A stretch of 64,000 bases of DNA from an uncultured Planctomycetota bacterium (GTDB taxonomy: Bacteria > Planctomycetota > Planctomycetia > Isosphaerales > Isosphaeraceae). The DNA is taken from positions 32,001 to 96,000 of the forward strand of contig CAWJTV010000018.1 of the NCBI GenBank assembly GCA_963845755.1, read 5' to 3'. How positions within the stretch are numbered: the first letter of the stretch is position 1; each line of letters starts with the position of its first letter. A model generated the notes under the pieces. It had not been told where the DNA came from. It worked only from the letters and a program-made list of their open reading frames with translations, and did no database searches. Positions 43,330 through 57,594 of this stretch are shown here, in pieces. The position numbers were made by a program, and so were the translations under genes.

Positions 43330-43912
43330 ATGACAACCGTGCCCCGAGGAACCGGGTCCTGCCGCCTTGAGCTGGGAGAAGGCCCGACCGAACGCCTCGA
43401 TCTCAAGGCCCGGTCGCTGGAGCCGATGCGGGAGCTTCGTCAAGCCGAAGAAGCCGTCCGGCCAGCGCGTCAAACGTGCCCGGTCGGTCCAGCCCCAAGA
43501 TCAGCCGCGTTCCATCGAGGAACTCCCCCGGCCGCTGATGGCGCACGGCCTCATCACCCGCCTCCCCGATCCCGCGTGGACATCGACGAAGACGACCCGG
43601 GCGATCCGCCTATCCCCATCGTGGGCGAGCCTTCGTCGGAAGCCATCATCCGGGAGCGGCGCTGAAGCGGCGTTGTCGTATTTCGTCGATCCGAGTGCTC
43701 GGATCCGACGCGAGGTTCAGGAAATCCGAACCACCTGGGTTCGCGGCAGCACGGCCACGGCCCGTCCAACGTGATCGACATCGCCCGGCACACCGCCGTC
43801 GAATTCACCGGCCCCGTCGCGTGAGGGCGTAAAGGAAAACGCTCACCCCCCTGCGGCGCATCGTCGATTCTCCACCGCTTCGGCCCGCCTCTCGGTGGTC
43901 GGCATACCGTCG
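43330..43912 (+). pseudogene. Decayed antitoxin plus VapC/PIN toxin pair, toxin 3'-truncated
   Basis: Antitoxin-like end IPIVGEPSSEAIIRERR* at 43665, then YFVDPSARIRREVQEIRTTWVR..VIDIARHTAVEF (PIN pattern YF.DSSAL.KRY..E.GT.WV) with a stop and indels. Confidence 0.55.
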
Positions 43913-44096
43913 AGGCCGCGACGTTTCCCTCGGACGCCCGATGGCTCAGGGAGTCTTCGAACTCGCCTTCGCCCACTTCGAGAAGACGCCGCTCGCCATG
44001 AACGAGGATGAGCCGCTTGATCCACTGGAGGTAGGCAACCCTCGTGCGAATGCTGTAATGCAACCTCCAGACAACTTCACGGACCCGGTCGAGCAA
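43908..44096 (-). pseudogene. intI: Integron integrase N-terminal (SAM-like) fragment; catalytic domain absent
   Basis: LDRVREVVWRLHYSIRTRVAYLQWIKRLILVHGERR..EVGEGEFEDSLSHRASEGNVAAST follows the IntI N-terminus. It is divergent from the cassette array and no tyrosine-recombinase box follows. Confidence 0.85.
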
Positions 44097-44286: not shown

Positions 44287-44934
44287 TTGGCGACCTTCAC
44301 CGGATACGACCAGGACCGCATCGTCTTCGAGACGATCGCTGATGAGCGGGCCCCCGGCTTGCTACTCCTGATCCACGGGGCCGTCTTCGCAGGGGCACCT
44401 CTCTACGCCTCGGCACTGTACGGGCTGAAGGGGGCCTCAGCTTGGCTGCTCCTCGTCGTGGGAGTCCTGGCGGGCCTCGCCGAGACCGCCTTCGCCTCGA
44501 TCGTGCTGCTCAAATCCGAGTGGCTCGTCATCGACCTGCGGCGGCGGTCCTATACCGGGCATCGCGGGGTCTTGTTCTGGGGCGACAAGTGGTCCGGGCC
44601 CATCGGCGACTTCCATCATATCCGGCTGAGTGAGGTCCCTCGCGGGCGACATGGCCGTCATCGCCGCCTGGTCGTCGAATGGGTCTGGGCCGAGCCGGGA
44701 CGCCCTCCGTTCCGCGTCACCGGCTGGGGCCGCCTCAAGTCCTTCCGTATCACCCGATGTCCGCAGGGGGGTGACGGTCGAGGATTCCTGCGGGATCTCC
44801 GCGCCGTCGCTGAGGATGTGGGCCTCCCGTTGGTCGTCCCGGAGCGATATGTCGATGGCCTCGGCGTCAACGACCGGGAAGTCGACGGCCCGGCTAACAA
44901 GGCGATGCAGCGGACCCGCTGCGCGGGCCGCTGA
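44287..44934 (+). CDS. Cassette 1: hypothetical membrane protein (reads through its attC)
   Basis: TTG start after a G-rich RBS, two transmembrane helices, stop within attC. Confidence 0.65.
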   Translation: MATFTGYDQDRIVFETIADERAPGLLLLIHGAVFAGAPLYASALYGLKGASAWLLLVVGVLAGLAETAFASIVLLKSEWLVIDLRRRSYTGHRGVLFWGDKWSGPIGDFHHIRLSEVPRGRHGRHRRLVVEWVWAEPGRPPFRVTGWGRLKSFRITRCPQGGDGRGFLRDLRAVAEDVGLPLVVPERYVDGLGVNDREVDGPANKAMQRTRCAGR

Positions 44935-44950
44935 TCTTGCGTCGTTAGGC
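44892..44950 (+). repeat. attC site (59 bp)
   Basis: GGCTAAC..TGCAGCGGACCCGC..GCGGGCCGCTGA..GTTAGGC. Confidence 0.92.
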
Positions 44951-44967
44951 GGCTTACCGGAGGCACT

Positions 44968-45471
44968 ATGAACTACAAGCAAATAGCCTCGCGTCTCACC
45001 GGCATCAGTTGTCCCGTCTTCGGCGTTTCGTGGAATCCCCCGGCCACAGAGGTCGATGTCGCCCAGCGAGTCCTTTCGTTTCTCGAAGACCGCCGTGTAC
45101 TCTACAACGAGTACGAGATGGAGTTGCCTGACCATTGCATGATGTCGGTCATCGACATTCGCCGCTTTCTCACTGACGTTCTTGGCCGCCTTCCCAACAA
45201 GCAAGGGCTTCCGGCCCATCTGCGTATGATGCGTGCAGCTTGTCGTCAGTTCCTGGACAAGAATGGCGGCGAACGATTCCGCGATCACCAACCGCACATG
45301 TTTGGTGGCCCGGAGACGTGGGTTTTTGCCAGCGCACTTGGCGATCTCCGAACCACAATCGGGCTACACGTGGGAATCGTCTGCACCATGTATGGCCTTG
45401 GCGTCGAGGGCGACCTTGCGAAGATACTCCCCCCGCTGCCGAATGACGATAACGAGGAGGCCGATGCCTAA
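44968..45471 (+). CDS. Cassette 2: hypothetical protein (DUF6650-like)
   Basis: GGAGG RBS; IASRLTGISCPVFGVSWNPP..FLEDRRVLY. The stop TAA lies in R''. The family name is recalled, not searched. Confidence 0.75.
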   Translation: MNYKQIASRLTGISCPVFGVSWNPPATEVDVAQRVLSFLEDRRVLYNEYEMELPDHCMMSVIDIRRFLTDVLGRLPNKQGLPAHLRMMRAACRQFLDKNGGERFRDHQPHMFGGPETWVFASALGDLRTTIGLHVGIVCTMYGLGVEGDLAKILPPLPNDDNEEADA

Positions 45472-45525
45472 CAGGCGGTTGCAGCGGACCCGCCTGCGGC
45501 GGGCCGCTGAACCTTTTCGTTAGGC
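45466..45525 (+). repeat. attC site (60 bp)
   Basis: GCCTAAC...GTTAGGC with the conserved stem. Confidence 0.92.
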
Positions 45526-45545
45526 GGCAGTGTGGAGGCGACGCT

Positions 45546-45812
45546 ATGCGGTCGGCCACCCGATCTTCTCTATTCGTGGTCGCGTGGTCGGTCGGGCTGG
45601 CCTCGCGCTACGCGAACCGCGGTGATCCTCAGTGGGCCACGAAGTTGCGGGTGGCGTGCCTGTTCTTCGTCCTCGGAGGAGCCTTGCTCTGGTCGATCCA
45701 GAAGATCTCCAAGCGGCCGTGGCCTTGGTTCGTAGAAGGCATCGCACTACCGTTCGTCGCCGGCGGCTTGATCTACGGGATCGTCGCCGTACGCAACGCG
45801 TTCAGGGGATAG
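45546..45812 (+). CDS. Cassette 3: small membrane protein
   Basis: GGAGG RBS and three hydrophobic segments. Confidence 0.65.
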   Translation: MRSATRSSLFVVAWSVGLASRYANRGDPQWATKLRVACLFFVLGGALLWSIQKISKRPWPWFVEGIALPFVAGGLIYGIVAVRNAFRG

Positions 45813-45816
45813 CTTT

Positions 45817-45874
45817 GTCTAACAATGCGATGCAGCGGACCCGCTGTGCGGGCCGCTGATCTTGGGCGTTAGCC
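45817..45874 (+). repeat. attC site (58 bp)
   Basis: GTCTAAC...GTTAGCC. Confidence 0.92.
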
Positions 45875-45886
45875 AGCGGAGGGCTC

Positions 45887-46169
45887 ATGGCCGACGATCT
45901 TGTGCACCTCCTGCTCGACATCAAGCTCGCCGGCGACGGGTTCGCATCGCCGGACGAGTTTGATCTCCGGGACCGGCTCGTTGAGCGGATCGAGCGACTG
46001 GGCATCGGTGAGGTCGGCGGCTATGGCTCGGGAGTCGGCGGCATGGACATCTCCGTGCTCGTCGCTGATGAAGCTGAAGGTCGGGGGCGGCTGAGTCGAA
46101 CTCATGCAGGAGGTCGCGCCGGATGCTCGCTTCACCATCGAGGTACTTGCAGACGAGGATGACGGCTAA
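45887..46169 (+). CDS. Cassette 4: small acidic hypothetical protein, frameshift near 46090
   Basis: GGAGG RBS; GIGEVGGYGSGVGGMDISV. The alternative frame ends FTIEVLADEDDG* at the R'' TAA. Confidence 0.65.
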
Positions 46170-46224
46170 CGAGGCGATGCAGCGGACCCGCCTGTCGGCG
46201 GGCCGCTGATCTATGGCGTTAGCC
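46164..46224 (+). repeat. attC site (61 bp)
   Basis: GGCTAAC...GTTAGCC. Confidence 0.92.
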
Positions 46225-46234
46225 GGCGTGGGTC

Positions 46235-46564
46235 ATGACACACGATATCGAGGCCGAGTTGACCCTCCTTCCGACCGAGCACGGCGGGCGCCACCTTCCA
46301 GTGTCCTCCGGCTACCGCCCCCAGTTCTATTACAGCGGCCACGACTGGGACGCGGTCCATACATACGTCGATGTCACGGAAGCCCGTCCCGGCGATACCG
46401 TCACCGTCCGGTTGTCCTTCCTTAGCCCGGAAGCGCACGCGGGCAGGATCTTCGCCGGCATGCCGTTCCTCGTGCGCGAGGGTAATCGGGTCGTCGGATA
46501 TGGTCGCGTGACTCGCATCCTTGACTTGGAGGCGGCACATCGACAATCTTCGAAGGAGGGCTAA
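46235..46564 (+). CDS. Cassette 5: stand-alone EF-Tu C-terminal (domain III)-like protein
   Basis: EAELTLL.TEHGGRH.PV.SGYRPQFY..PGD.V....F.VREGNRVVGYG.VT.I parallels EF-Tu domain III. Confidence 0.8.
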   Translation: MTHDIEAELTLLPTEHGGRHLPVSSGYRPQFYYSGHDWDAVHTYVDVTEARPGDTVTVRLSFLSPEAHAGRIFAGMPFLVREGNRVVGYGRVTRILDLEAAHRQSSKEG

Positions 46565-46616
46565 CAAAGCGATGCAGCGGACCCGCTGCGCGGGCCGCTG
46601 AATTTGGGCGTTAGCC
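46559..46616 (+). repeat. attC site (58 bp)
   Basis: GGCTAAC...GTTAGCC. Confidence 0.92.
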
Positions 46617-46641
46617 AGCATTCCGATTGCACGGGGGGGAC

Positions 46642-47005
46642 ATGAGGGCCGATGATGACCCGTACTTCACGGCGACCGACAAGGCCAAGCCGCATCCGCC
46701 CCGCGGCATGGCGCAGCTCGTGGTGCGAATCCCTTGGTGCCTCTCCTGGGTCGCCGTGGCGCTCCTGTCTATGCAGGTGTTCGTCTCGCCGATCATCTAC
46801 CAGTCGCGGCTGGCGACCGGGGCCTATATCATGACGGAGATCGGGGCCGGGGCGGCTCGGTGCCATCTCGGCCTTCGGCGTGCTGGCCATCCGACTGGTG
46901 CGTTCAGGAGGCTCGCCCGATCCGTACACGAGGAGACTGGCTTGGTCGATACTGAGGGGCCTGCTGGTTGTCATCCTCATAATGACGGGGCTCGAGGTCG
47001 CCTGA
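46642..47005 (+). CDS. Cassette 6: membrane protein, frameshift near 46850
   Basis: Hydrophobic segments continue in the shifted frame (LGAISAFGVLAIRL..GLLVVILIMTGLEVA*). Confidence 0.55.
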
Positions 47006-47015
47006 GGGAGGCCCC

Positions 47016-47075
47016 GGCTAACAAGGCGATGCAGCGGACCCCGCTGCGCGGGGCCGCTGATCTGGGGCGTTAGAC
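47016..47075 (+). repeat. attC site (60 bp)
   Basis: GGCTAAC...GTTAGAC. Confidence 0.92.
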
Positions 47076-47084
47076 GGTGGGGCA

Positions 47085-47420
47085 ATGAGCGTCAGCGACG
47101 ATCTTGACCGGTTGTTTCCAGGCCACCGCTCGCCCGAGCGGGTTGCCGATTGGGAGGCGCTCGAGCAGCGCCTTGCCTACGGGCAGTCCGTCACTGGTAC
47201 GGTCGTCGTCAAATCCCCGTTCGGGGCGTGGGTCGACCTCGGCGTCGGTTTCCCTGCCCTGCTGGAGATCATCGTCATTGTGGGCCTGACGCCCGAGAAA
47301 TATCGTGCGGGTGACTGGTGCCCTGTCGGTAGCGAAGTCTCGGCGTTTGTCGGTGGATTCCGCGATGACTCTCATCAGATAGGGCTGTGGCAGGTGCCGG
47401 TCGGCCATGGCCGCGTCTAA
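47085..47420 (+). CDS. Cassette 7: stand-alone S1/OB-fold-like protein
   Basis: GQSVTGTVV...PFGAWVDLGVGFPALL..VGSEVSA.V.....QIGL. The stop lies in R''. Confidence 0.7.
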   Translation: MSVSDDLDRLFPGHRSPERVADWEALEQRLAYGQSVTGTVVVKSPFGAWVDLGVGFPALLEIIVIVGLTPEKYRAGDWCPVGSEVSAFVGGFRDDSHQIGLWQVPVGHGRV

Positions 47421-47473
47421 CTCCGCGTTGCAGTGGACCCGCCTGCGGCGGGCCGCTGAACTTTCCGTTAGGC
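47415..47473 (+). repeat. attC site (59 bp)
   Basis: GTCTAAC (complements the preceding GTTAGAC)...GTTAGGC. Confidence 0.92.
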
Positions 47474-47492
47474 TGCGGAGGCGCAGCGGGTT

Positions 47493-47810
47493 GTGGAGTG
47501 GCTCGTGCCATGGCATTCTGTCGCTGATGATCCAGCCTAGGTGGAGGGCATGGTACGTGAGTTACTCCGCGAGCTTGCTGAAGGTCACCCGCTCTACCGC
47601 CTCCCGGTGCGGACGTGGGGTCGCAGGCAGGACCGCGACGACGTGCTGTTCGCCATAGAAGATGGTAGCGGGCGCGTCGCGGTCGTCCATCTGGCGTGGA
47701 CTTGGAATCCACCCGATCCTCCGCCCTGGCCATGGACCATGCTGTATCGAAGCTTCGATGCGTGGATCGTCGAGGGTGTGCGCCGCGATTACGACGAGTT
47801 GCATGCCTAA
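47493..47810 (+). CDS. Cassette 8: hypothetical protein with an in-frame TAG at 47538 (or a start at ATG 47550)
   Basis: ELAEGHPLY..RRQDRDDVLF...VAVVHLAW..PWP. The stop lies in R''. Confidence 0.65.
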
Positions 47811-47862
47811 CCTGCGGTGGCAGCGGACCCGCTCCGCGGGCCGCCGATCTTGGGCGTGAGGT
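47805..47862 (+). repeat. attC site (58 bp), R' degenerate (GTGAGGT)
   Basis: GCCTAAC plus the conserved stem. Confidence 0.85.
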
Positions 47863-47917
47863 GGCGACAGGAGACACTCGGATTGTGGCTCGCGCGGGCG
47901 TGATGTACGCTGAGTGA

Positions 47918-48212
47918 ATGAGCCCGTCGATTCGAGAGGTCAACCCTGGCGAATTGCGGCTCCCACCGAGTCGGGCCAGCGGGGCCGACCCATGGAAGCT
48001 CCACCAGCAGATCCGACAATTTGGAGCGTCGAGGAACGGGATGCCCCCGATCCTTGTACGAGGATCCGGACGGCATCTTGGAGATCTCCGACGGGGTCAC
48101 CCGCGCCACCCGGATCGCCAAGCTGGCACCAGACCAGACAGTCCCGATCGTGGTGATCGGTCAGTATCGACGAAGCCGGGCAGGCTCCCCTTGCGTGAGG
48201 GACCGGTTATGA
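47918..48212 (+). CDS. Cassette 9a: small ParB/Srx-N-like protein, frameshift near 48058
   Basis: MPPILV-YEDPDGILEISDGVTRATRI..TVPIVV resembles the ParB-N PI.V...I.DG..R pattern. Confidence 0.55.
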
Positions 48213-48469
48213 GCGAGAGCGATACCCGTGTGGAATTGTTCGCCGCCCTCCAGGAATTGTCCGAGGTCATCCCCGAGATGCGGTCCGGCCAGCTCGTGGC
48301 GGCGGTCGGGGAGCTGTGCGCCGATCTCCACGGGCGCGGCCTCTGGGACGCCGCCGACGGCGAGTTGCTCAAGGCCGTATGGCTGTTCCGCCGCAACTAT
48401 GAGGCGGCTCTTACCCCGAGCCGGGACGATACCTTCTATGAACCCGCTGAAGTCAAGCCCCCCGACTGA
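48209..48469 (+). CDS. Cassette 9b: small helical protein whose original stop was displaced by the IS
   Basis: ATGA overlap with 9a; PEMRSGQLV..LWDAADGELL. The empty site restores GAT ACC TAA. Confidence 0.7.
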   Translation: MSESDTRVELFAALQELSEVIPEMRSGQLVAAVGELCADLHGRGLWDAADGELLKAVWLFRRNYEAALTPSRDDTFYEPAEVKPPD

Positions 48470-48800
48470 TTTTTTCCGGGCGTCCCGCGGGGCGCGGACA
48501 GCGATCGCTCCGAGTCCGACAGCGTATGTCCTGGCTCCCCGTTTGCGGGGAGCCAGGACACACGCTGTCTCTCGTTCTCCAGACAACGCCGGTGGTCCTG
48601 CGATCGACACTCTCCTTGTCCTTCTCGAAGAACTCCCGAGACCGCGGCTGGTGGCTTCGTCACGCGCGTCGCGCCTGCCAGGAGGCCGCGACCACCTTCT
48701 CTCCGTGTGGATCCTCACTCAAGGGACCGAGCACCCGTTACTCTGTTCGTCCGCGGACGACTCCGAAGCCAGGTGTGGGGACAAACCCATCTAACTCACG
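48435..48800 (-). ncRNA. Candidate bridge/seek RNA region of IS110 copy 1
   Basis: About 360 nt downstream of the transposase, conserved in copy 2, with strong hairpins and the junction-matching 7-mers GTTAGAT and AGAAGGT. Confidence 0.5.
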
Positions 48801-49950
48801 GTCGGCTGCCGCCGACCAGGCGCTTTCCGCCCCCTCGGGGACCTCGCCCTGCTCCAGGTATCGCCACAGCGCGATCAACAACTTGCGGGCCAGGGCCACA
48901 ATCCCCACCTTGCGCCGCCGCGTTGCCCTCGCCGAACCGACGCTGATACCACTGGCTCAAGGCGCTGTGGAGCTGCCAGTGCAGCCAGCCCCAGGCGATC
49001 TCCACCGCCATCCACCGCAGACGACAGTTCCCCGCCTTGCTGATCCCTTGCTCGCGCTGACCGTCGCCACTGGCGTACGGCGTCGGGGCCAAACCGGCGA
49101 GGCTCGCCAGCTCGCGGCGGTTCTGGATCTGCCGCCAGCCGAAGAACTCGCGGACGAACCGCGTCGCGCTCATCGGACCGATCGCCTTGAGGTTCAGCAG
49201 CAGCCGCGGCTTCTCGACGTCGGCCGTCGCGTCGTCGCGGAACGCTCGCCGCTGGGCGTTCTCCAGGTCGCGCACCTGGCGGTCCACCAGTGTCCATCGC
49301 TTGAACTCGCGGCGGATGCGGGCACTCAGCTCGGCCGGGACCGGCCTGCCGTCCCATTGGCGAAGTTGGCCGAGGCGTTCCGGCAACGGGTCATCGACCA
49401 CGACGTCAAGGCCGAGGTTGGCGAGGAGTCCCTTGATGCGATTGGAGTGCTCGGTGCGCTGGCCCTTGACGGCGATCAGCTCGCGGTGGGGCTGACGGCG
49501 GTCCTCATCGTCGGGGGTGGGGATGCGGACGACGCTCCAGAGCTTGTGCTCGCCGCCGTGATAACGGATCAACATCGTCAGGAGCTTGCCGACGTCGAGC
49601 CGATCGCTCTTGGCGCGACGCGCGCGGCGGTTGACCTCGATGCTGGCGGCGTCAACGACGAGGTTCGTGACTGCGTGATGTTGGAGATCGCGATGGAGCC
49701 AGAAGCCGTCGCGGCCGGCCTCGTAGCAGGAGACGAGGGGGACATCGCCGGAAAGGGCGAAGCGTTGCCTGGCGAGGAGGATCTCGCGCTGGAGACCTTC
49801 GAGATCGCGAGCGGGGATGGTGCGGAGCCGCGGCTTCTGGGCCATGGCGGTGGTGAAGGCGAGGTTCAAGGACGTCCAGCCGAGGTCGAAGGCGAGGAAG
49901 AGCGTGTTCGAGGCGGTGGTGGTAGGATGAAGGTCGTGGGTCGCTGACAT
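48796..49950 (-). CDS. IS110 DEDD recombinase/transposase, frameshift near 48915
   Basis: AFDLG, YEAG, AKSDRLD, GLAPTPYASG, GISKAGN.RLR. The tail KVGIVALARKLLIALWR is in a shifted frame. Confidence 0.92.
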   Translation of the reverse strand: MSATHDLHPTTTASNTLFLAFDLGWTSLNLAFTTAMAQKPRLRTIPARDLEGLQREILLARQRFALSGDVPLVSCYEAGRDGFWLHRDLQHHAVTNLVVDAASIEVNRRARRAKSDRLDVGKLLTMLIRYHGGEHKLWSVVRIPTPDDEDRRQPHRELIAVKGQRTEHSNRIKGLLANLGLDVVVDDPLPERLGQLRQWDGRPVPAELSARIRREFKRWTLVDRQVRDLENAQRRAFRDDATADVEKPRLLLNLKAIGPMSATRFVREFFGWRQIQNRRELASLAGLAPTPYASGDGQREQGISKAGNCRLRWMAVEIAWGWLHWQLHSALSQWYQRRFGEGNAAAQGGDCGPGPQVVDRAVAIPGAGRGPRGGGKRLVGGSRP

Positions 49951-50050
49951 GGTAAGACTCCGAGGTTGAGAGGGATTTGGTGAAAGACCTCTTCTGAGGA
50001 GCTTACCGTCGGCGGCTCACCGTTTTCAGCCCGGTCGCTCCGGACATAGT

Positions 50051-50100
50051 ATCTAACCAGGCGATGCAGCGGACCCGGCCCGCTGAGCTTGACGTTAGGC
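50051..50100 (+). repeat. attC site (50 bp, short loop); R'' ATCTAAC rebuilt by the IS end
   Basis: ATCTAAC..TGCAGCGGACCCGGCCCGCTGA..GTTAGGC. Confidence 0.8.
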
Positions 50101-50111
50101 GGCTTCGAGCG

Positions 50112-50357
50112 ATGGCTCGTGAAGACGTGAAGCTCGACATCCTGCGGCTGGTCGCCCGCCATGACGGAGAGTGGTTCTGGTATCACATCGATCGCGCACT
50201 CAGCGGCGCTCGCATCGGATGCGTCGGCCCCTTCACGGCCGAGATCGGTGATTTGGAGTCCGCAGGACTGATCGAGACCCGCCCGAACTTCGCGCTTGGC
50301 GATCAGGGGCGTTACTGGCGAACTGAGGCGGGACGCGCGGCGGTCGCGGACGCCTAA
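50112..50357 (+). CDS. Cassette 10: small winged-helix-like protein
   Basis: LESAGLIE..RYWRTEAGRAA pattern; stop in GCCTAAT. Confidence 0.6.
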   Translation: MAREDVKLDILRLVARHDGEWFWYHIDRALSGARIGCVGPFTAEIGDLESAGLIETRPNFALGDQGRYWRTEAGRAAVADA

Positions 50358-50449
50358 TCGGCGCGGCAGGGGACCTGAACCGCCACAGCACTTAAGGATG
50401 CGAACGAACTCATCTCGGTGGCCCCGGACACTGGCCCAAGTGGTCATGC
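50352..50449 (+). repeat. Degenerate long attC (98 bp)
   Basis: GCCTAAT..GGCAGGGGACC...GTCATGC with weak pairing. Confidence 0.45.
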
Positions 50450-50457
50450 GGCTTCCA

Positions 50458-50485
50458 TTGCTGGTCGGTCCGATCGCGGTATAAT
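50458..50485 (+). promoter_or_regulatory. Promoter of the toxin-antitoxin cassette
   Basis: TTGCTG-N16-TATAAT, followed by GGAGG and ATG at 50502. Confidence 0.6.
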
Positions 50486-50501
50486 GTTGGGGGAGGTGTC
50501 C

Positions 50502-50721
50502 ATGATCCAGACAGTTGAAGCGGTGGTCAACGCGACCGGCCACGTGCGATTGCTCGGCGAAGTGCGAGTCGAACGCGCCCCGTCGGGCTTTGGTGACCGT
50601 GCTCGAAGAGCCGGCCGCTGTACCCGGTGAGGCGGCGCTGCTGGCCGAGGCGGCCTTGGCCGCCGATTGGTCGAGGCCGGAGGAGGATGCCGCGTGGTCG
50701 TACCTTCAGCCGGCGAAGTAG
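50502..50721 (+). CDS. Cassette 11a: putative antitoxin, frameshift near 50575
   Basis: MIQTVEAVV..G.VRLL..RRALVTVLEE..LAADWSRPEEDAAW; overlaps the toxin. Confidence 0.7.
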
Positions 50722-51038
50722 TGCTGGTCCCGTTCCCCTTCTCGGACCTGTCGCAGTCCAAGTTGCGGCCGGCAGTCTGCCTGGCCCCCGCCGGCCGGGG
50801 CGACTGGGTGCTCTGCCAGATCACGAGTAGTCCCTACGGCGATCCCTCGGCGGTGCCGTTGGACGCAACGGACTTCACCACGGGCGGGCTGCTGGTGGCG
50901 AGTTTCGCCCGGCCGGGTAAGCTCTTCACCGCCAGCGTCGGCCTCATGGTGAAATCGGTCGGCATTCTTTCTCCCGCTGCGCTGGCCCGGGTACTTTCGG
51001 TGGTCGCTGCACTCTTCCAGCCACCTTCGGGGCCCTGA
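50694..51038 (+). CDS. Cassette 11b: PemK/MazF-family endoribonuclease toxin
   Basis: GEVVLVPFPFSDLSQSKLRPAV..CQITS..S.ARPGKLFT; GGAGGAGG RBS. Confidence 0.88.
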   Translation: MVVPSAGEVVLVPFPFSDLSQSKLRPAVCLAPAGRGDWVLCQITSSPYGDPSAVPLDATDFTTGGLLVASFARPGKLFTASVGLMVKSVGILSPAALARVLSVVAALFQPPSGP

Positions 51039-51039
51039 C

Positions 51040-51098
51040 GCCTAACGAGGCGATCCAGCGGACCCGCTGGCGCGGGCCGCTGATCTTTAACGTTAGGA
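51040..51098 (+). repeat. attC site (59 bp)
   Basis: GCCTAAC...GTTAGGA. Confidence 0.92.
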
Positions 51099-51117
51099 AG
51101 CAAGAAAAGGGGCTGGC

Positions 51118-51453
51118 ATGAAAGCCTTCGTGGTGTCTCTCAACGGCCAACCGTTCGTGACAGCCGGGGTCGGTGATGATGGCGTCCTCGCCACAGGGCT
51201 CAGCTGGGTCGGTGGCTCCCCACCACGTCCCGTCGAGGGCCGGCTAGATTTTCGCGTGGGCGGCGTTGACGGGCGCACTGGGGAGCACATCAATTGGTCG
51301 GTCCCCGAGATCGGCGTTGGCGACGAGATCACGATCAAGGTCATCGAGACGGCTCAGGTGACGCCTGAAGACGAGCGCTACCGCTTCGACGAGTCGAACT
51401 GCCATATCGGCGTCAGGGGCGAAGAGACCGAGGCGGGAGAAGAGGAGCCTTGA
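51118..51453 (+). CDS. Cassette 12: hypothetical protein
   Basis: MKAFVVSLNG..AGVGDDGVL..VGDEITIKVIE; fills the cassette. Confidence 0.75.
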   Translation: MKAFVVSLNGQPFVTAGVGDDGVLATGLSWVGGSPPRPVEGRLDFRVGGVDGRTGEHINWSVPEIGVGDEITIKVIETAQVTPEDERYRFDESNCHIGVRGEETEAGEEEP

Positions 51454-51456
51454 GTT

Positions 51457-53024
51457 CTTCTATGAAACCGCTGAAGTCAAGCCCCCCGACTGATTCTTTC
51501 CGGGCGCCCCGCGGGCGCGGACAGCGATCGCTCCGAGTCCGACAGCGTGTGTCCTGGCTCCCCGCAAACGGGGAGCCAGGACACACGCTGTTTCTCGTTC
51601 TCCAGGCAACGCCGGTGGTCCTGCGATCGGCACACTCCTTCCTCTTGCGAAAGAACTCCCGGGACCGCGGCTGGTGGCTTCGTCACGCGCGTCGCGCCTG
51701 CCAGGAGGCCACGACCACCTTCTCTCCGTGTCGGTCCTCATTCCAGGGACCGAGCACCCGTTACTCTGTTCGTCCGCGGACAACTCCGAAGCCAGGTGTG
51801 GGGACAAACCCATCTAACTCACGGTCGGCTGCCGCCGACCAGGCGCTTTCCGCCCCCTCGGGGACCTCGCCCTGTTCCAGGTATCGCCACAGCGCGATCA
51901 ATAACTTGCGGGCCAGGGCCACAATCTCCACCTTCGCGCCGCGCGTTGCCCTCGCCGAACCGACGCTGATACCACTGGCTCAAGGCGCTGTGGGGCTGCC
52001 AGTGCAGCCAGCCCCAGGCGATCTCCACCGCCATCCACCGCAGACGACAGTTCCCCGCCTTGCTGATCCCTTGCTCGCGCTGACTGTCGCCACAGGCGCA
52101 CGGCGTCGAGGCCAAGCCGGCGAGGCTCGCCAGCTCGCGGCGGTTCTGGATCTGCCGCCAGCCGAAGAACTCGCGGACGAACCGCGTCGCGCTCATCGGA
52201 CCGATCGCCTTGAGGTTCAGCAGCAGCCGCAGCTTCTCGACGTCGGCCGTCGCGTCGTCGCGGAAGGCACGCCGCTGGGCGTTCTCCAGGTCGCGCGCCT
52301 GGCGGTCCACCAAAGTCCAGCGGTCGAACTCGCGGCGGATGCGGGCACTCAGCTCGGCCGGGACCGGCCTCCCATCCCATTGGCGAAGTTGGCCGAGGCG
52401 TTCCGGCAACGGGTCATCGGCCTCGACGTCAAGGCCGAGGTTGGCGAGCAGGCCTTTGATGCGATGGGAGTGCTCGGTGCGCTGACCCTTGAGGGCGATC
52501 AGCTCGCGATGGGGCTGGCGGCGATCTCCGTCGTCGGGCGTGGGGATGCAGACGATGCTCCAGAGCTTGTGCTCGCCGCCGTGATAACGGATCAACATCG
52601 TCAGGAGCTTGCCGACGTCGAGCCGATCGCTCTTGGCGCGGCGGGCGCGGCGATTGCCCTCGATGCTGGCGTCGTCGACGACGCAGTTGGTGACGGCGTG
52701 GTGTTGGAGATCGCGATGGAGCCAGAAGCCGTCGCGGCCGGCCTCGTGGCCGGAGAGCACGGGGGCGTCGCCGGGGAGGGCGAAGCGGTCTCGGGCGCAG
52801 AGGATCTCGCGCTGAAGGGCGTCGAGATCGCGAGCGGGGATGGTGCGGAGCCGCGGCTTCTGGGCCATGGCGGTGGTGAAGGCGAGGTTCCAGGACGTCC
52901 AGCCGAGGTCGAAGGCGAGGTCGAGCGTGTTCGAGGCGGCGGTGGTAGGATGAAGGTCGTGGGTCGCTGACATGGTAAAACTCCGAGGTTGAGAGGGATT
53001 TGGCGAAAGACCTCTTCTGAGGAG
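51457..53024 (-). mobile_element. IS110-family element, copy 2 (diverged, upstream end truncated)
   Basis: Collinear with copy 1 from CTTCTATG (51457) to CTTCTGAGGAG (53024); lacks about 50 bp of that end. Confidence 0.88.
51819..52973 (-). pseudogene. IS110 recombinase, probably inactive
   Basis: Same motifs as copy 1, but PYASG has become PCACG (conserved Ser lost), with a frameshift near 51935. Confidence 0.8.
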
Positions 53025-53076
53025 GTTAGAGCGCCCCACCGTTGGGTGGCACCCACTCGAAGCCTGCTCCCGAAGA

Positions 53077-53115
53077 ACCCCCTGAACCCCCCCTGCGAAG
53101 GGGGGGTTCGGGGGT
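53077..53115. repeat. REP-like hairpin
   Basis: ACCCCCTGAACCCCCCC-TGCGA-AGGGGGGGTTCGGGGGT; relatives at 57928-58012. Confidence 0.65.
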
Positions 53116-53449
53116 GAGTTCGCAGCGCCTCAGGGCGTGCGCAACGCAAGAGTTAAGCGCTCTAGCTGGCGGCCCGCGGAGGTGGCTGCGTGGGCGGGTT
53201 GCTGGTGGAGCTCAACTTCAGGACCATAGTCGAGGTCTTCAAGGCAGCCTGGCGACATGACTTCCCCAATTCCCCGTGAGGTCCCCGGCGCGCAGATGTC
53301 ATTGAGGTCGCCTCGCAGCCAATGCCCTCACATCCCCTCTGGGACCGCGAGATCGACGGCCGTTAGTTGTCCCGGGGTTCGACGGTCGTTATTGTAACGG
53401 GGAGAAGTCGCCTCTCACGAAGGGAGGTGACGCTCGAGAGACTGCGAAA

Positions 53450-53854
53450 ATGCATTTGGAGTTTGTCGTAGTCGGTGTTCCCATCTCAAACCAGTCGGCA
53501 GGAACTGCCGCCCTTCAAGCCTGGCGGACGGCGGTAGAGACCGAAGTAAAGAAGAACTGGACTGGTACTCCACTGACCGGCAGGCTGAAGGCGGTTATCA
53601 TCAACTTTCACACGGGTGATAAGCCATCCCTCGACCTCGACAACATGACGAAACCGATACTGGACGTCATGCAGCAAATCGTCTACGACGATGACCGCCA
53701 GGTTCGGCAGGCCGAACTCACACACGTCCGGATCGACGCGCCGTTCGTCTTCGTCGGGGCCTCGAAACTTATCGTGGCCGCCGTGCAAGCCGGTAATGAG
53801 TTTGTGTACGTGAGAATAGAGGACCCGATCGATCCATTCCCATTACCGACGTGA
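53450..53854 (+). CDS. Cassette gene: RusA-family Holliday junction resolvase-like protein
   Basis: EFVVVGVPIS.Q, DLDNMTKPILDVM, VYDDDRQV. Confidence 0.85.
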   Translation: MHLEFVVVGVPISNQSAGTAALQAWRTAVETEVKKNWTGTPLTGRLKAVIINFHTGDKPSLDLDNMTKPILDVMQQIVYDDDRQVRQAELTHVRIDAPFVFVGASKLIVAAVQAGNEFVYVRIEDPIDPFPLPT

Positions 53855-53858
53855 TACC

Positions 53859-54542
53859 ATGGATTACGAACAAGAGTTGAATCGTTTGGCAGACATTTAT
53901 CGAGGTCACGGCTACGACGTGACCGTCCGGCCTGGCCCGGATCAATTGCCTCCGTTCGCCAGAGATTTCAGGGTGGAAATCCTCGGCCGCCGCGGAGCCG
54001 AGGGTGTGCTCGTTGCAGTCAGGAGAAACCGCGACGAAGTTGCAGCCGACAGCGACATGCAGCGGTATGCTGAGACCACGGGAGCTCAGCCTGGGTGGCG
54101 ATTCGATTTCGCCATTCTCGAGTCGGAGCAGCCGAATGCCAGAGAGGTGCGGGGAGCGAAGGAGCTTTCGCAGGACGACATCAACAAGTCACTTGAACAG
54201 GCACGGGAACTCAGCCGAATGGGCTTCACAGGGTTTGCGGTCGTCGCAGCTTGGGCCACGTTGGAAGCGGCCATGCGGATGCGGCTCCGGGCTCTCGGAC
54301 AGGAAGCGGGTTGGGGAAGCATCCCCAGGCAGATGACAAGAGAACTCTATTCCGCAGGCGCGTTATCCCCAGACGAATTCCGTCGAATTGAGAGCGCGTC
54401 CCAGCTCAGGAACCAGATCGTTCACGGCTTCGCGTCGCAGCCCGCTGAGCCAGGCGATTCTGAGGCTGCGATGGTCGAAGTTCTGAGCGGCGTCGCTCAT
54501 CGCCTCGTTAATGAATCCCAACCCGCAGCGCAATCCACTTGA
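53859..54542 (+). CDS. Cassette gene: REase_AHJR-like N-domain plus HEPN-like C-domain
   Basis: LADIYRGHGYDV..P...LPPF..PGWRFD, then AWATLEAAMR...LRNQIVHG (Rx4H). Confidence 0.65.
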   Translation: MDYEQELNRLADIYRGHGYDVTVRPGPDQLPPFARDFRVEILGRRGAEGVLVAVRRNRDEVAADSDMQRYAETTGAQPGWRFDFAILESEQPNAREVRGAKELSQDDINKSLEQARELSRMGFTGFAVVAAWATLEAAMRMRLRALGQEAGWGSIPRQMTRELYSAGALSPDEFRRIESASQLRNQIVHGFASQPAEPGDSEAAMVEVLSGVAHRLVNESQPAAQST

Positions 54543-54556
54543 GCCGACTACCTATC

Positions 54557-54614
54557 GGCTAACCCGCGGTTGCAGCGGACCCGCTGCGCGGGCCGCTGAA
54601 CCTGGGCGTTAGCC
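54557..54614 (+). repeat. attC site (58 bp)
   Basis: GGCTAAC...GTTAGCC. Confidence 0.92.
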
Positions 54615-54631
54615 GGCGGGGGAACGTAATC

Positions 54632-54946
54632 ATGAAAGCGATCTCGTCCGTGCTGCTCATCCTGGCAGTCGCCTGCTCCGGCACGGGGCAAGAGCCGGAG
54701 GACGGCTACGTCCCGGACGATGGATTCGTCCCAAGCAAGGAAGTTGCTATCAAGATTGCCGTCGCGGTCTGGGAGCCGATCTACGGCGCGGAGAAAATCG
54801 CCAAGGAGAAGCCCTACCGTGCGACCCTGGCCGACGGCGTTTGGACCGTCGAGGGATCGCTATCGAAGGGCAGCAACGGCGGTGTGGCCCTCGCCAGGAT
54901 CGCGAAGAAGGACGGCCGCATCCTTCGCGTCACCCACGGCAAGTGA
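54632..54946 (+). CDS. Cassette gene: YbbC/YhhH / NTF2-fold immunity-like lipoprotein
   Basis: Lipobox-like LAVAC; VPSKEVAIKIA.AVW.PIYG..I..EKPY..VW.VEGSL..GG....I.K.DG.IL...HGK. Confidence 0.8.
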   Translation: MKAISSVLLILAVACSGTGQEPEDGYVPDDGFVPSKEVAIKIAVAVWEPIYGAEKIAKEKPYRATLADGVWTVEGSLSKGSNGGVALARIAKKDGRILRVTHGK

Positions 54947-54975
54947 CTCTGAACCGGGGCGCCATCGAGGGTCGC

Positions 54976-55032
54976 GCCTAGCCTTGCGATGCAGCGGACC
55001 CGCTTTGCGGGCCGCTGAGCTTTGTGTGAGGT
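54976..55032 (+). repeat. attC site (57 bp), both cores degenerate
   Basis: GCCTAGC, conserved stem, GTGAGGT. Confidence 0.8.
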
Positions 55033-55038
55033 GGCGTA

Positions 55039-55386
55039 GTGAGAGCGTCCACGCGACAACGTGACCATGGACTCCCGCTCGTCCTTCGTTGGTCGCGGGA
55101 CGTCCTGGGAGCGTTCGTCACTCTGGTAGCCCTCGTGTTCACGACCCGGAACTGGGGGACGCCAGCGGCGGCAGTCAACTGCGCCCTCGCTGTCGCCGGG
55201 GCCGTCGGGCTCCGGCTGCGATCGTGGCCGGTCCTCGCAGCCTTGTCTGGTGCGTATCTCGGCGCCATCGCGGGGACCTCCATGGGGGACTCGGCGGTAA
55301 ACGCGCCGGTTCATGGTCTGTTGCTCGCCATCTGCGGGACGGTTGTGGGATATGGCTTTCAAATGATGGAGCGGGGACCGGCCTAA
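55039..55386 (+). CDS. Cassette gene: small membrane protein
   Basis: Four hydrophobic segments; stop in R''. Confidence 0.6.
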   Translation: MRASTRQRDHGLPLVLRWSRDVLGAFVTLVALVFTTRNWGTPAAAVNCALAVAGAVGLRLRSWPVLAALSGAYLGAIAGTSMGDSAVNAPVHGLLLAICGTVVGYGFQMMERGPA

Positions 55387-55439
55387 CGAAGCATGGCAGC
55401 AGCCCCACTGCGCGGGGCCGCTGATCCTGGGCGTTAGGC
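55381..55439 (+). repeat. attC site (59 bp)
   Basis: GCCTAAC...GTTAGGC. Confidence 0.88.
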
Positions 55440-55461
55440 GGCGGAAGGGGAGGGTTTGGGG

Positions 55462-56100
55462 ATGCGTTCGTTCTGGGGCGAGTTCGTTCGCGCGCGTGCC
55501 TTCTGGGTGAGCTACGTCAGCGCGGGGGTGGATTTCGTCGGTTGCGGCAGCCTCCAGGCTGACCAACGGCTGCTCTGGGAGGAGCCGACGTGCGGGGCGA
55601 CGCTGATGTTCCGCTTCCCCGACTCCCACCGGCTGCGCCTGGATGTTGCGGCGGGGGAGCATAAGCTGCAACTGCTGCACCCCGACTACGACGAGCCGCA
55701 ACTTGTTGGCACGATGGACTGTCACCAGATGAGCGATCTCTTCCGGTGGGACGAGTTCCGGGCGGTCACCCGGCACCTGGCCACGACTTCCGGCCCGACG
55801 TCGGCGCACGAACTGTTGCTGAGTTTCTACGTCGCCGTCACCGAGGATTGTGCGGATGAGCATGCGGTGGTGCTGCGGCGGACCCTGGAAGCGTCGGAGG
55901 TATTTGCCGTCCCGGAAATCGAGCATATCTTGGCCTATACGCGTCGGGTTGCGGTGCGTCGGGATTTCCGATGGGTCCACACCCCGGGGTTGGGGTGGCT
56001 GGCAGAGGGCCGCGACACCTACTGCATGCGGCACACGCGGGGTGAGCTCGACTTCGATCGGTTCAGCCGGTTCCTGGGAGCGCTGGCCAGCGACGCGTGA
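55462..56100 (+). CDS. Cassette gene: hypothetical protein
   Basis: GGGAGG RBS; fills the cassette; stop in R''. Confidence 0.7.
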   Translation: MRSFWGEFVRARAFWVSYVSAGVDFVGCGSLQADQRLLWEEPTCGATLMFRFPDSHRLRLDVAAGEHKLQLLHPDYDEPQLVGTMDCHQMSDLFRWDEFRAVTRHLATTSGPTSAHELLLSFYVAVTEDCADEHAVVLRRTLEASEVFAVPEIEHILAYTRRVAVRRDFRWVHTPGLGWLAEGRDTYCMRHTRGELDFDRFSRFLGALASDA

Positions 56101-56194
56101 CCTGCGCTGCAACGGAACCGGACCGCGGCTGCGGCTTTCTGGTAGAATCGAGGCAGATGCTCGGCGGGCCGGGCTGTTGAGCTTGTTGTTACGC
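56095..56194 (+). repeat. Long-type attC (100 bp), degenerate
   Basis: GCGTGAC..TGCAACGG..CCGGACCGC...GCGGGCCGG.CTGTTGA..GTTACGC. Confidence 0.65.
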
Positions 56195-56256
56195 GGCGGC
56201 CAATCTACCGACAGTGGTGATGTCGCGGGGGACCACGCCTGCAGTCGGGGGCTACT

Positions 56257-56604
56257 ATGCAAGAATTCGGGCCCTACTTCCTTCTTGCCTCAATGCTCGG
56301 TTCGCTCCTCGCTCCTCTCCTCATCGGAATCTTACCGAGGGAGGCAGCCAGGCGTGTGGTGGTATGGGCTCTCCGCATCTTGGTCCCGACCTTCCTCGTA
56401 AGTTTCATCTCGCTCGCGGCACAAGGGGATCGAGGCTTCCTCAGCAACTCGCAATCCGTGCTAACGGGCTCCGTCTTCTTGATCCTGTCCGTAGGCCTCG
56501 GCTACTTCGTATCATGGCTGCGTCACACATTGTCGAGCCGAGGTATTCAAGGCTCCCGGGGTGGGAAAATCAAGGCGGGACTATTGGACGATGAATTGGC
56601 CTGA
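56257..56604 (+). CDS. Cassette gene: small membrane protein
   Basis: Three transmembrane segments; stop in GCCTGAC. Confidence 0.65.
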   Translation: MQEFGPYFLLASMLGSLLAPLLIGILPREAARRVVVWALRILVPTFLVSFISLAAQGDRGFLSNSQSVLTGSVFLILSVGLGYFVSWLRHTLSSRGIQGSRGGKIKAGLLDDELA

Positions 56605-56645
56605 CCTGCGGTTGCAGCGGGCCGCTGCAACCTTCACGATTGGAG
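56599..56645 (+). repeat. Collapsed attC remnant
   Basis: GCCTGAC followed by the perfect palindrome GGTTGCAGCGG-G-CCGCTGCAACC; no GTT core. Confidence 0.55.
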
Positions 56646-56654
56646 GCTCTCTCG

Positions 56655-56918
56655 ATGGTCCGTCAACTCTTCACTGTCGAGGATGTCTTCACGATCCGTC
56701 AGCGTGGCACCATCCTCGTGCCGGGAATCGTGCCCGAGGGCGATGAGTGGTTCCATATCGGCGACGGCTTGTGCCTGCGCCGCCCCGATGGGTCGGAAGT
56801 TCGGACGGCGATCGATGGCATCGACTTCTTCAACGTCAGCGAGCACGGTGCTTACGCGATCGTGGTGCCCTTACCTGCATCCGATGTGCCACTTGGCATC
56901 GAGGTCTGGTCGGCATAG
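56655..56918 (+). CDS. Cassette gene: stand-alone EF-Tu domain II-like beta-barrel
   Basis: FTVEDVFTIRQRGTILV.G......IGD.L......RTAIDGIDFF parallels EF-Tu IEDVFSI.GRGTV..G..VG...T.VTG.EMF. GGAGG RBS. Confidence 0.65.
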   Translation: MVRQLFTVEDVFTIRQRGTILVPGIVPEGDEWFHIGDGLCLRRPDGSEVRTAIDGIDFFNVSEHGAYAIVVPLPASDVPLGIEVWSA

Positions 56919-56924
56919 GCTGGA

Positions 56925-56985
56925 GCCCAACAATTGGTTGCAGCCGACGCGCCTGTCGGCGGGCCGCTGAACCTTCGCGTTAGGC
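56925..56985 (+). repeat. attC site (61 bp)
   Basis: GCCCAAC...GTTAGGC. Confidence 0.88.
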
Positions 56986-57036
56986 GGTGGGAGTCTTGGA
57001 GCATCCTTGAGGCGCTGGTGTCGATCGAGGGGTCAT

Positions 57037-57579
57037 ATGCCTTCATCCGTCCGCGGCCTGCTGGGGGCTGTCCCCGTCGTGATGATCGGTTGCCTCGCCA
57101 TCCGGGGCGCTGCTCTGCCGGCTCCCTGGGTCATCACGACCGCGGCGTTCTTGTTCGGCCTCCCCGCATTACTCAGTCCCTCGGCTCGGCCCGAGTGGCG
57201 ATCCGCCTTGATTGCGTTCGCCTGGGCCGGCTCGCTTTACCTCGTGCTGTGCTTCGGCCCCGGCCTCGACCTGTGCGAACTCGAGTACCTCCCCTCCACG
57301 GCGGCACTCAATCGCCTCTTCCCGGTGATATTCACAGAAGGCTATCTCCAAGACCTGGCGGTCGAGCGTGAAGGCTGCACTTGCGACCGATGTGTCACTG
57401 ATGTCCGGGACGGCCTCCGTAGCGGATTTCTCCAGGCAGGCCACATCGTCACCGCGTTGCTCGCGGCGGCACTCTCTGGGCTGGCAGCTTGGGCGCTGTC
57501 ATCGTATCGTGGGGTGGGCGTACGAAAAGAGGCCCGGCCTAACCCACGGTTGCAGCGGACCCCTGCCGCGGGCCGCTGA
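57037..57579 (+). CDS. Cassette gene: membrane protein with CxCxxC (reads through attC)
   Basis: Four hydrophobic segments and GCTCDRC. Confidence 0.6.
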   Translation: MPSSVRGLLGAVPVVMIGCLAIRGAALPAPWVITTAAFLFGLPALLSPSARPEWRSALIAFAWAGSLYLVLCFGPGLDLCELEYLPSTAALNRLFPVIFTEGYLQDLAVEREGCTCDRCVTDVRDGLRSGFLQAGHIVTALLAAALSGLAAWALSSYRGVGVRKEARPNPRLQRTPAAGR

Positions 57580-57594
57580 CCTCGAGCATTAGGC
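57537..57594 (+). repeat. Last clear attC (58 bp), R' mutated to ATTAGGC
   Basis: GCCTAAC plus the conserved stem. Confidence 0.82.

Follow-up and report, generated by a model that had tools for sequence, protein, structure and literature searches.

Immunity proteins of polymorphic toxins usually work by tight binding to the toxin domain, which is thereby blocked. Several interbacterial toxins have been described as binding or modifying the translation factor EF-Tu; these include Salmonella Rhs2, Serratia Rhs2 and TreTu, a Salmonella Rhs toxin that ADP-ribosylates EF-Tu, and whose immunity protein TriTu consists of a five-stranded sheet with two helices (PMC9825190). Stores of immunity genes have also been described, in the rAID arrays of Bacteroidales, which combine a tyrosine recombinase with orphan immunity genes that are 30-62% identical to their cognate counterparts, yet protective (PMC12247911). 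Here, we analysed a stretch of 64,000 nucleotides (nt) from an uncultured Planctomycetota bacterium (the window; G000:C18:32001-96000, within a host assembly of 14.27 Mb in 49 contigs that is 87.9% complete). The window contains a chromosomal integron cassette array, of which one cassette encodes a stand-alone EF-Tu domain 3 (D3), and two others encode proteins that resemble EF-Tu domain 2 (D2-like) and an S1 domain (S1-like; Table 1). Relatives of the D3 protein are found directly behind the C-terminal domain of a polymorphic toxin, and we estimate at roughly 55% the probability that this toxin domain has its immunity partner in the D3 family, and that the D3 cassette of the window is an orphan immunity gene held in an integron.

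The domain identity of the D3 protein was directly visible in its sequence. It matched the Pfam family GTP_EFTU_D3 (PF03143) with an E-value of 6.8e-11 and 42.9 bits against a cut-off of 27, with residues 3-95 aligning to positions 6-105 of the 106 in the profile. A phmmer search of the PDB returned 61 sequences at E<=1, with EF-Tu or EF-Tu-containing constructs accounting for 59 of the best 60, and the best match was to the EF-Tu chain 6gfu_A (E 3.5e-14, residues 5-99 on 305-396). Against the whole-EF-Tu model TIGR00485 the protein scored 51 bits, compared to a cut-off of 522, and matched only positions 304-393 of 394, and it is accordingly not a full-length EF-Tu. The D3 protein is hence like the domain 3 of translational GTPases, in that it shows a significant sequence match along the whole domain, and differs from EF-Tu in lacking the GTPase domain and domain 2. 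It carries the motifs GGRH, GYRPQFY and REGNRVVGYG, from which a first-pass annotation of the window, made from the sequence alone, had recognised EF-Tu domain III. The family has a signature of its own, GHDWDA, where EF-Tu has RTTDVTG, and the Thr of the EF-Tu motif GGRTVGAG, which we take to be the Doc kinase site, is replaced by Val in the D3 protein. The D3 open reading frame (ORF) occupies the whole of its 0.39-kb cassette. The protein is 38% identical to domain 3 of the 407-amino-acid (aa) EF-Tu of its host (L001), indicating that it is not a recent fragment of tuf.

We identified a family of such proteins. A word-indexed search, which covers proteins of similar length only, recovered 139 stand-alone D3 proteins of 59-191 aa with strongly conserved columns, of which 119, from varied sources, are 50-78% identical to the protein in the window. 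When we scanned 185,579 species, each represented by a single genome, the stand-alone family appeared at 69 loci, distributed over Planctomycetota, Acidobacteriota, Chloroflexota, Verrucomicrobiota, Myxococcota, Pseudomonadota, Bacteroidota and Bacillota. We additionally identified a subgroup centred on the Bacteroidota (L080-L109, e.g. L081:2968-3675), in which D3 is fused to a conserved C-terminal extension of ~130 aa without a Pfam family. The extension of L096 showed a weak match to Tox-ART-HYE1 (E 0.02). Separately, the D3-fusion proteins of L086, L089 and L090 are nearly identical across records that carry the labels Akkermansia, Chitinophagales and Bacteroidota, suggesting either recent transfer or mis-binning.

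For the genomic D3 loci, we compared the nearest ORF on each side (125 ORFs) with Pfam. The neighbours were mostly unrelated housekeeping genes or had no Pfam family. The neighbours in L072 are DUF1553 and DUF1501 genes, and a SUKH immunity gene lies upstream of D3 in L095. Two of the 69 loci, L091 and L096, are located directly behind a toxin gene. The first contains a 982-aa frame with RHS repeats that stops 15 nt ahead of a 101-aa D3 gene, and the second an RHS-core protein that overlaps the start of a 233-aa D3-fusion gene. The C-termini of the two toxins (their last ~100 residues) are related to one another (43% identity over 40 residues, E 9e-8), and both match a single hidden Markov model (HMM).

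The reverse test started from the toxin. Using the toxin domain alone, we fetched 80 metagenome loci totalling 227,750 bases (alignment A7, a subset of alignment A6), and scored the 71 that contain at least 330 nt after the toxin ORF. A D3-like ORF, detected with an HMM of the stand-alone family, was the next ORF downstream on the same strand in 50 of these 71 loci, its start mostly lying within a few bases of the toxin stop codon. After collapse of redundant sequences, the D3-like ORF was found in 28 of 45 toxin clusters at 90% identity, and in 12 of 20 at 70%. We found no D3 match away from the toxin ORFs in the 227,750 bases; the match in L192 lies just upstream of its toxin ORF. Members of the D3 family therefore occupy the position of an immunity gene, directly downstream of a toxin C-terminal domain and on the same strand, a position that the copy in the window does not share. 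Separately, the metagenome contig L189 carries two pairs of toxin tip and D3-like gene in tandem (116-743 and 2050-2653), as in arrays of orphan toxin-immunity modules.

Homology between the downstream ORFs and the stand-alone family was evident from the alignments themselves. The downstream ORFs keep the GGR and EG..VA motifs in register, and hhalign joined their alignment (A8) to that of the stand-alone family (A4) across 97 columns, with a probability of 99.25% and an E-value of 5.7e-20. We placed the sequences in a quick tree only, in which the divergent toxin-linked proteins resolve into one clade and the true tuf domains into another. The protein in the window and the toxin-linked L091 fell together within a weakly supported group of 20 rows (Shimodaira-Hasegawa-like approximate likelihood-ratio test, SH-aLRT, 92), and L096 was positioned inside the fused Bacteroidota/Bacillota clade.

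The toxin domain spans ~95 aa, with the consensus LYRAVS..E..D...EGKFFAE..DA..WG...RLDGIGPARF and invariant Arg, Val, Glu and Asp residues. A full HMMER scan of 1.84 billion representatives identified 145 relatives with an E-value of 1e-3 or lower. These proteins measure 86-2857 aa, and all but P0250 and P0272, which match in multiple stretches, carry the matched segment at their C-terminal end or close to it. Among the 21 long carriers, 16 contain RHS repeats, of which four add SpvB and TcdB_midN, and one contains a PT-TG pre-toxin domain. This C-terminal position, together with the RHS, SpvB, TcdB_midN and PT-TG carriers, indicates a polymorphic-toxin architecture. No Pfam family matched the two genomic toxin tips at E<=1, or the domain in 50 carriers at E<=1e-3, and no family recurred among 26 members at E<=10; nor did searches of the PDB, whether with a single sequence or with a profile, return anything significant. 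The toxin domain is thus undescribed by the family databases. A protein-language-model search of the ESM Atlas placed it near Tox-ART-HYD1 (0.89) and TreTu_C (0.88), scores that fall below the 0.9 line and are treated as leads only.

We suggest that the D3 family descended from EF-Tu domain 3, and came to serve as the immunity protein of this mostly RHS-borne toxin C-terminal domain, which it would bind tightly and block. An orphan copy, such as that in the window, may be retained on a mobile cassette and shield its carrier from toxins that neighbouring cells deliver, and the D2-like and S1-like cassettes may play a comparable role as binders or immunity proteins. The toxin model found no match in the genome of the window, which makes an orphan immunity gene the most likely identity of its D3 cassette.

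Several observations weigh against this interpretation. No D3-like ORF was found in 21 of the 71 assessable toxin loci. The downstream proteins are divergent, with none of 52 reaching Pfam GTP_EFTU_D3 at E<=1e-3, and their alignment matched the host EF-Tu with a probability of only 15% (E 0.0017). The first row of that alignment, L091, is itself similar to the stand-alone family, and may inflate the hhalign score. The quick tree is poorly resolved, with 59 of its 108 branches open, and places L091 on a long branch. The two toxin-linked loci are the only ones among the 69 genomic D3 loci, and none of the loci at least 50% identical to the protein in the window is toxin-linked (the nearest toxin-linked member is 45% identical to it), so the function of the clade to which the window protein belongs is extrapolated. 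As the host genome is 87.9% complete, absence of the toxin from it is not proven. Finally, the D2-like and S1-like genes had no toxin or RHS neighbour in any of 29 and 13 class-level loci, respectively, searched with three RHS queries and one toxin model, and a Pfam search around ten phylum-level loci of the two families likewise revealed no toxin neighbour. A prediction of the complex between the toxin tip (A6) and its D3-like neighbour (A8) scored 0.01 compared to a mark of 0.32, which counts neither for nor against binding.

The D3 family resembles the immunity proteins of Rhs, contact-dependent inhibition (CDI) and type VI secretion systems in being encoded by small, co-oriented genes directly downstream of RHS toxin tips, and, like known immunity families, it includes toxin-less orphan copies scattered over phyla. 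It is unlike them in its presumed fold, derived from EF-Tu domain 3, in its partner toxin, for which there is no Pfam model, and in the location of the window copy on an integron cassette. The array of the window also contains a cassette for an Imm-NTF2-2 protein, a named family of polymorphic-toxin immunity, which we count in favour of an immunity function. The new pair shares with TreTu and TriTu a small toxin domain borne by RHS proteins; however, TriTu is not a D3 barrel, and the toxin has no Pfam or PDB sequence match to TreTu. In common with the rAID arrays, the array of the window has a tyrosine recombinase, short and co-oriented putative orphan immunity genes, and intergenic motifs that are conserved, whereas it differs in being a classical integron with attC hairpins, in its bacterial lineage, and in that most cassettes have no known family. 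The principle of recombinase-linked orphan immunity stores is already known; what is new is the proposed EF-Tu-derived immunity fold, of which we found no equivalent immunity family in the literature searched, along with the undescribed toxin domain and the location of the gene on a classical integron.

A further step, which we consider doubtful and which is akin to the decoys or mimics proposed in the first-pass annotation, would be that the immunity protein replicates the surface on which the toxin acts, and that integrons stock a library of translation-factor decoys. The RHS toxin domain, perhaps a small ADP-ribosyltransferase, would then attack EF-Tu domain 3 or the complex of EF-Tu with tRNA, and bacteria would have released EF-Tu domain 3 as a free decoy for their protection. 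The D2-like and S1-like cassettes would represent the same trick, directed against other toxins, namely those exploiting EF-Tu domain 2 or ribosomal protein S1. The case for EF-Tu as the target of the toxin is one of analogy only, several Rhs and CDI toxins being known to bind EF-Tu.

The other two cassettes were assigned mainly by predicted fold, whereas the D3 assignment rests on sequence. The S1-like protein falls below the Pfam S1 (PF00575) threshold (14.6 bits compared to 22, E 0.043), and matched the ribosomal protein bS1 in the PDB (9zcd_A) with an E-value of 4.4e-7. An AlphaFold2 (AF2) model made from an alignment of 38 sequences had a predicted local distance difference test score (pLDDT) of 92.3. 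Foldseek returned 93 matches to this model at E<=1e-3, the best being bS1 (8e-7), and VIA superposed 94 residues on residues 276-372 of Mycobacterium tuberculosis bS1 (Z 11.8, root-mean-square deviation, rmsd, 4.7), with S1-domain proteins making up all 50 of the VIA matches listed. The protein is thus predicted to have an S1-type five-stranded oligonucleotide/oligosaccharide-binding (OB) fold, in addition to its sequence similarity to bS1. It has this fold in common with the stand-alone S1 proteins YabR and GSP13 and with the domains of bS1, which appear among its structural matches, and the family differs from them in its sub-threshold Pfam S1 score, in a conserved LTPERYRAGDWCP segment of its own, and in being borne by cassettes. 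We identified 69 relatives by the word-indexed search, all full-length and with invariant columns, and within the host genome a copy identical over 330 nt (G000:C41:27597-27926) and a shorter one on contig C39.

For the D2-like protein, we found no Pfam match at E<=1, including to PF03144, and no PDB sequence match at E<=10. A profile of its family matched EF-Tu in 17 of 18 PDB matches, with a best E-value of only 0.065, and hhalign aligned it to residues 219-302 of the host EF-Tu (probability 85.6%, E 5.6e-6). The best of its AF2 models had a pLDDT of 86.8, and the remaining four scored 76, 61, 53 and 52. Foldseek returned nothing for the best model at E<=1e-3, the leading match being EF-Tu at 1.2e-2 (TMq 0.70), while in VIA 78 of the 87 residues were superposed on residues 213-298 of EF-Tu (Z 10.3, rmsd 2.4), and all 50 matches listed were to EF-Tu, in domain 2 (~207-307). 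The predicted fold is therefore that of the translation-protein beta-barrel of EF-Tu domain 2, and the sequence does not match the corresponding Pfam family. The 17 relatives recovered by the word-indexed search are full-length, with invariant columns. We additionally identified a paralogue at the end of contig C34 (G000:C34:800240-800503), with 96.2% nucleotide identity and three synonymous and six non-synonymous codon differences.

The first-pass annotation had named all three domains, and had noted that none of the ORFs contains a GTPase domain; both points agree with our data, each ORF filling a single attC-bounded cassette (the 56599-56644 site being weak). The structural comparison that it had proposed recovered the S1 and EF-Tu barrel folds, with the D2-like protein receiving weak support from Foldseek. 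Its speculation that the three proteins act in toxin immunity gains support for the D3 family, by virtue of its position in the toxin loci, and is not supported for the D2-like and S1-like families, whose HMMs additionally matched nothing in the 80 toxin loci.

We investigated how frequently the three families occur together. Among 400 other genomes sampled from the phylum, five contained the S1-like family, three stand-alone D3 and five the D2-like family, and no genome had two of the three. In a sample of 390 other genomes of the class, searched for the D2-like and S1-like families, we identified the D2-like family in 34 (17 of the 95 from the family of the host) and the S1-like family in 13 (eight of 95), with both present in two genomes (G637 and G753). 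The S1-like and D2-like paralogues of the host genome are all flanked by attC sites, which are absent from the control tuf and rpsA loci, and these two proteins represent conserved, cassette-borne, single-domain families in the class of the host. The three families account for six of the ~100 cassettes in the host genome, and the translation theme that they have in common may be a coincidence.

Among the alternatives to an immunity function, we considered whether the free domains might modulate translation, binding the partners of the parent proteins (aminoacyl-tRNA, EF-Ts, the ribosome or mRNA) to tune or protect host translation under stress. The D3 family keeps the EF-Tu motifs GGR, GYRPQFY and REG..VG.G, the invariant (L)FTVED.F..RG strand of the D2-like family aligns with IEDVFSI.GRGT of EF-Tu, and the S1-like protein retains the S1 fold and the FGA(W/F)VD strand; the retained EF-Tu motifs presumably touch tRNA. 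Such a role is nonetheless unlikely, as the rare, patchy and cross-phylum distribution of the cassettes (three to five of 400 phylum genomes, and 69 loci in 185,579 species) is unlike that of housekeeping functions, and relatives of D3 occupy the immunity slot of a toxin. In addition, the position of the histidine in the S1 motif GLxHxS aligns to Glu in the S1-like family.

The same toxin loci might be read as intracellular toxin-antitoxin (TA) modules, in which the toxin and D3-like genes would form an addiction or abortive-infection unit, with the cassette copy in the role of a spare antitoxin. Many toxin relatives are only 86-140 aa, 34 of 81 toxin frames measure 160 aa or less without starting at a contig end, orphan RHS modules reportedly act as TA modules (PMC7043789), and the arrays of the host carry TA cassettes of the PemK/MazF, HicA, PIN and DUF433/DUF5615 types. 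We nevertheless hold this to be distinctly unlikely, as RHS proteins make up 16 of the 21 long carriers, and short ORFs after rhs genes are the usual appearance of orphan toxin tips; moreover, 31 of the 81 frames run off the start of their contig and may be longer than they appear.

A role in phage biology, which the first-pass annotation had set beside toxin immunity, fared less well, and we regard it as improbable. Defence genes could plausibly reside in integron cassettes, and the domains could in principle sequester proteins of phages or of defence systems that rely on EF-Tu domains 2-3 or S1, such as the capsid protein with Lit, Avs7 or the replicase of RNA phages. EF-Tu is bound by Avs7, via domains II and III, and by the T4 capsid protein (PMC13581612). 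However, none of the three proteins had a match in the PADLOC 2023 library at E<=1, viral contigs contained no S1-like or D2-like relative and only two weak D3 loci, plasmids gave no match for the S1-like or D2-like protein, and the sole conserved neighbour found is a bacterial polymorphic toxin. Finally, that the cassettes are functionless debris, i.e. fragments of tuf and rpsA captured by chance, is scarcely credible even though each protein equals a single domain of a housekeeping gene, as it is already contradicted by conservation: the D3 protein is much closer to its stand-alone relatives than to the host EF-Tu, full-length relatives of the D2-like and S1-like proteins share invariant columns, and the domains are complete, with high-confidence models of the latter two.

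The cassette structure surrounding the three genes was directly observed. Nearly every small ORF of the array is followed by a repeat of 50-61 nt that contains the cores GCCTAAC ... GTTAGGC, and the inner core pattern was matched nine times in the array compared to zero across 100 shuffles. We built an attC alignment (A3) and a covariance model (R1) from the 15 sites of the window, which themselves score 51-81 bits, the 56599-56644 site reaching only 15. The array accordingly consists of integron cassettes in the usual sense, which share one orientation and pair one ORF with a downstream attC site that contains R''/R' cores and a hairpin. No intact integrase is located next to the array: the remnant ORF (43554-44096) matched Pfam Phage_int_SAM_4 (E 1.9e-10), and only positions 1-63 of the 315 in TIGR02249 are left (G000:C18:75908-76096). 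A full IntI is encoded elsewhere in the host genome, on contig C3 (484.9 bits compared to a cut-off of 265).

Table 1. Features of the integron array in the window (positions are those of the 64,000-nt stretch; R1 is the attC covariance model)
Feature	Position	Strand	Evidence or remark
Integron integrase remnant	43908..44096	-	N-terminal ~63 residues only; adjoins first cassette
Integron cassette array	44892..57594	+	15 strong attC sites (50-61 nt) and one weak, all on + strand
attC opening the D3 cassette and closing the preceding cassette	46164..46224	+	R1 75.2 bits, E 1.2e-16
Stand-alone EF-Tu domain-3 protein, 109 aa	46235..46564	+	Pfam, PDB sequence, comparison with host EF-Tu
attC of the D3 cassette, overlapping the stop codon	46559..46616	+	R1 81.1 bits, E 4e-18
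attC upstream of the S1-like cassette	47016..47075	+	R1 70.1 bits
Stand-alone S1/OB-fold protein, 111 aa: two N-terminal helices, then five-stranded barrel (predicted)	47085..47420	+	PDB sequence, AF2, Foldseek, VIA
attC of the S1-like cassette	47415..47473	+	R1 66.8 bits
Imm-NTF2-2 immunity cassette (named polymorphic-toxin immunity family)	54632..54946	+	Pfam PF15631, E 2.4e-21, 76.1 bits
Degenerate attC-like site upstream of the D2-like cassette	56599..56644	+	R1 15 bits, E 0.3
Stand-alone EF-Tu domain-2-like beta-barrel protein (predicted), 87 aa	56655..56918	+	Predicted fold, hhalign; alternative TTG start at 56640
attC of the D2-like cassette	56925..56985	+	R1 58.4 bits, E 2.4e-12

Across the host genome, an HMM of the attC alignment identified 98 hits and six arrays, with eight hits in the array on contig C3, 15 on C18 (the window), eight on C34, 31 on C39, 23 on C41 and nine on C47. 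The first-pass annotation had suggested searching for homologues of the three proteins beside attC sites and toxins. We found attC-like sites with R1 at no fewer than eight of 69 D3 loci, and, adjacent to the gene, at no fewer than five of 29 D2-like and three of 13 S1-like loci. The counts in other genomes are lower bounds, as R1 was built from the attC type of this genome only, and with the same model none of the 80 metagenome toxin loci showed an attC site. An attC finder of our own, based on core motifs and DNA folding, recovered nine of the 15 sites of the window at ~0.1 false hits per kb, compared to two in a first, stricter version. In a metagenome-assembled genome of Thermoanaerobaculia (L065, 70-5618), eight evenly spaced hairpin repeats of 129-130 nt with attC-type cores surround a D3 gene, and represent a distinct, longer attC type that is barely visible to R1.

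The remaining cassettes of the window encode, among others, DUF6650, PemK/MazF, and RusA plus AHJR-like/HEPN proteins. The last of these form one cassette, with a RusA-like resolvase (53450-53854) and an AHJR-like nuclease with a weak HEPN tail (53859-54542), both on the plus strand, ending in the attC site at 54557-54614. A two-gene cassette, also on the plus strand, consists of a small upstream ORF (50418-50630) followed by a PemK/MazF-like toxin gene (50667-51038; Pfam E 8.4e-7), and is a probable toxin-antitoxin cassette. We additionally identified two IS110-family transposase genes inserted inside cassettes on the minus strand (48796-49950 and 51819-53039), in copies 3,023 nt apart that contain stretches of 89-100% identity.

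In the five other arrays of the genome, 33 of 104 candidate ORFs matched Pfam families at E<=1e-4, about half of them ORFs of mobile elements (introns or transposases). The families identified were those of the TA toxins PemK, HicA, PIN and DUF433/DUF5615, and DUF4279, DUF1877, DUF2314, ankyrin, GNAT and FHA, alongside group II intron proteins and transposases. Three group II intron ORFs for reverse transcriptase/maturase/HNH proteins of 687 aa each, with identical Pfam scores (L024:11496-13559, L025:1111-3174 and L027:6148-8211), sit within the arrays on contigs C41 and C47 of G000, with truncated copies near by and fragments on C3 and C47. Similarly, a DUF4279 cassette occurs three times in the arrays on C39 and C41 (L022:1323-1760, L022:7157-7594 and L025:3513-3950), two of the copies having identical Pfam scores.

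If the D3 family does provide immunity, then a family derived from EF-Tu would be the first case, in the literature searched, in which part of a host factor relevant to toxins has been turned into a means of protection. Our finding indicates that a widespread toxin domain lies outside the family databases, one that together with D3 forms a small pair, of ~100 aa plus ~100 aa. The D3 cassette family thereby gains a concrete proposed function, and orphan-immunity stores would be extended from the Bacteroidales of the gut to the classical integrons of large environmental genomes.

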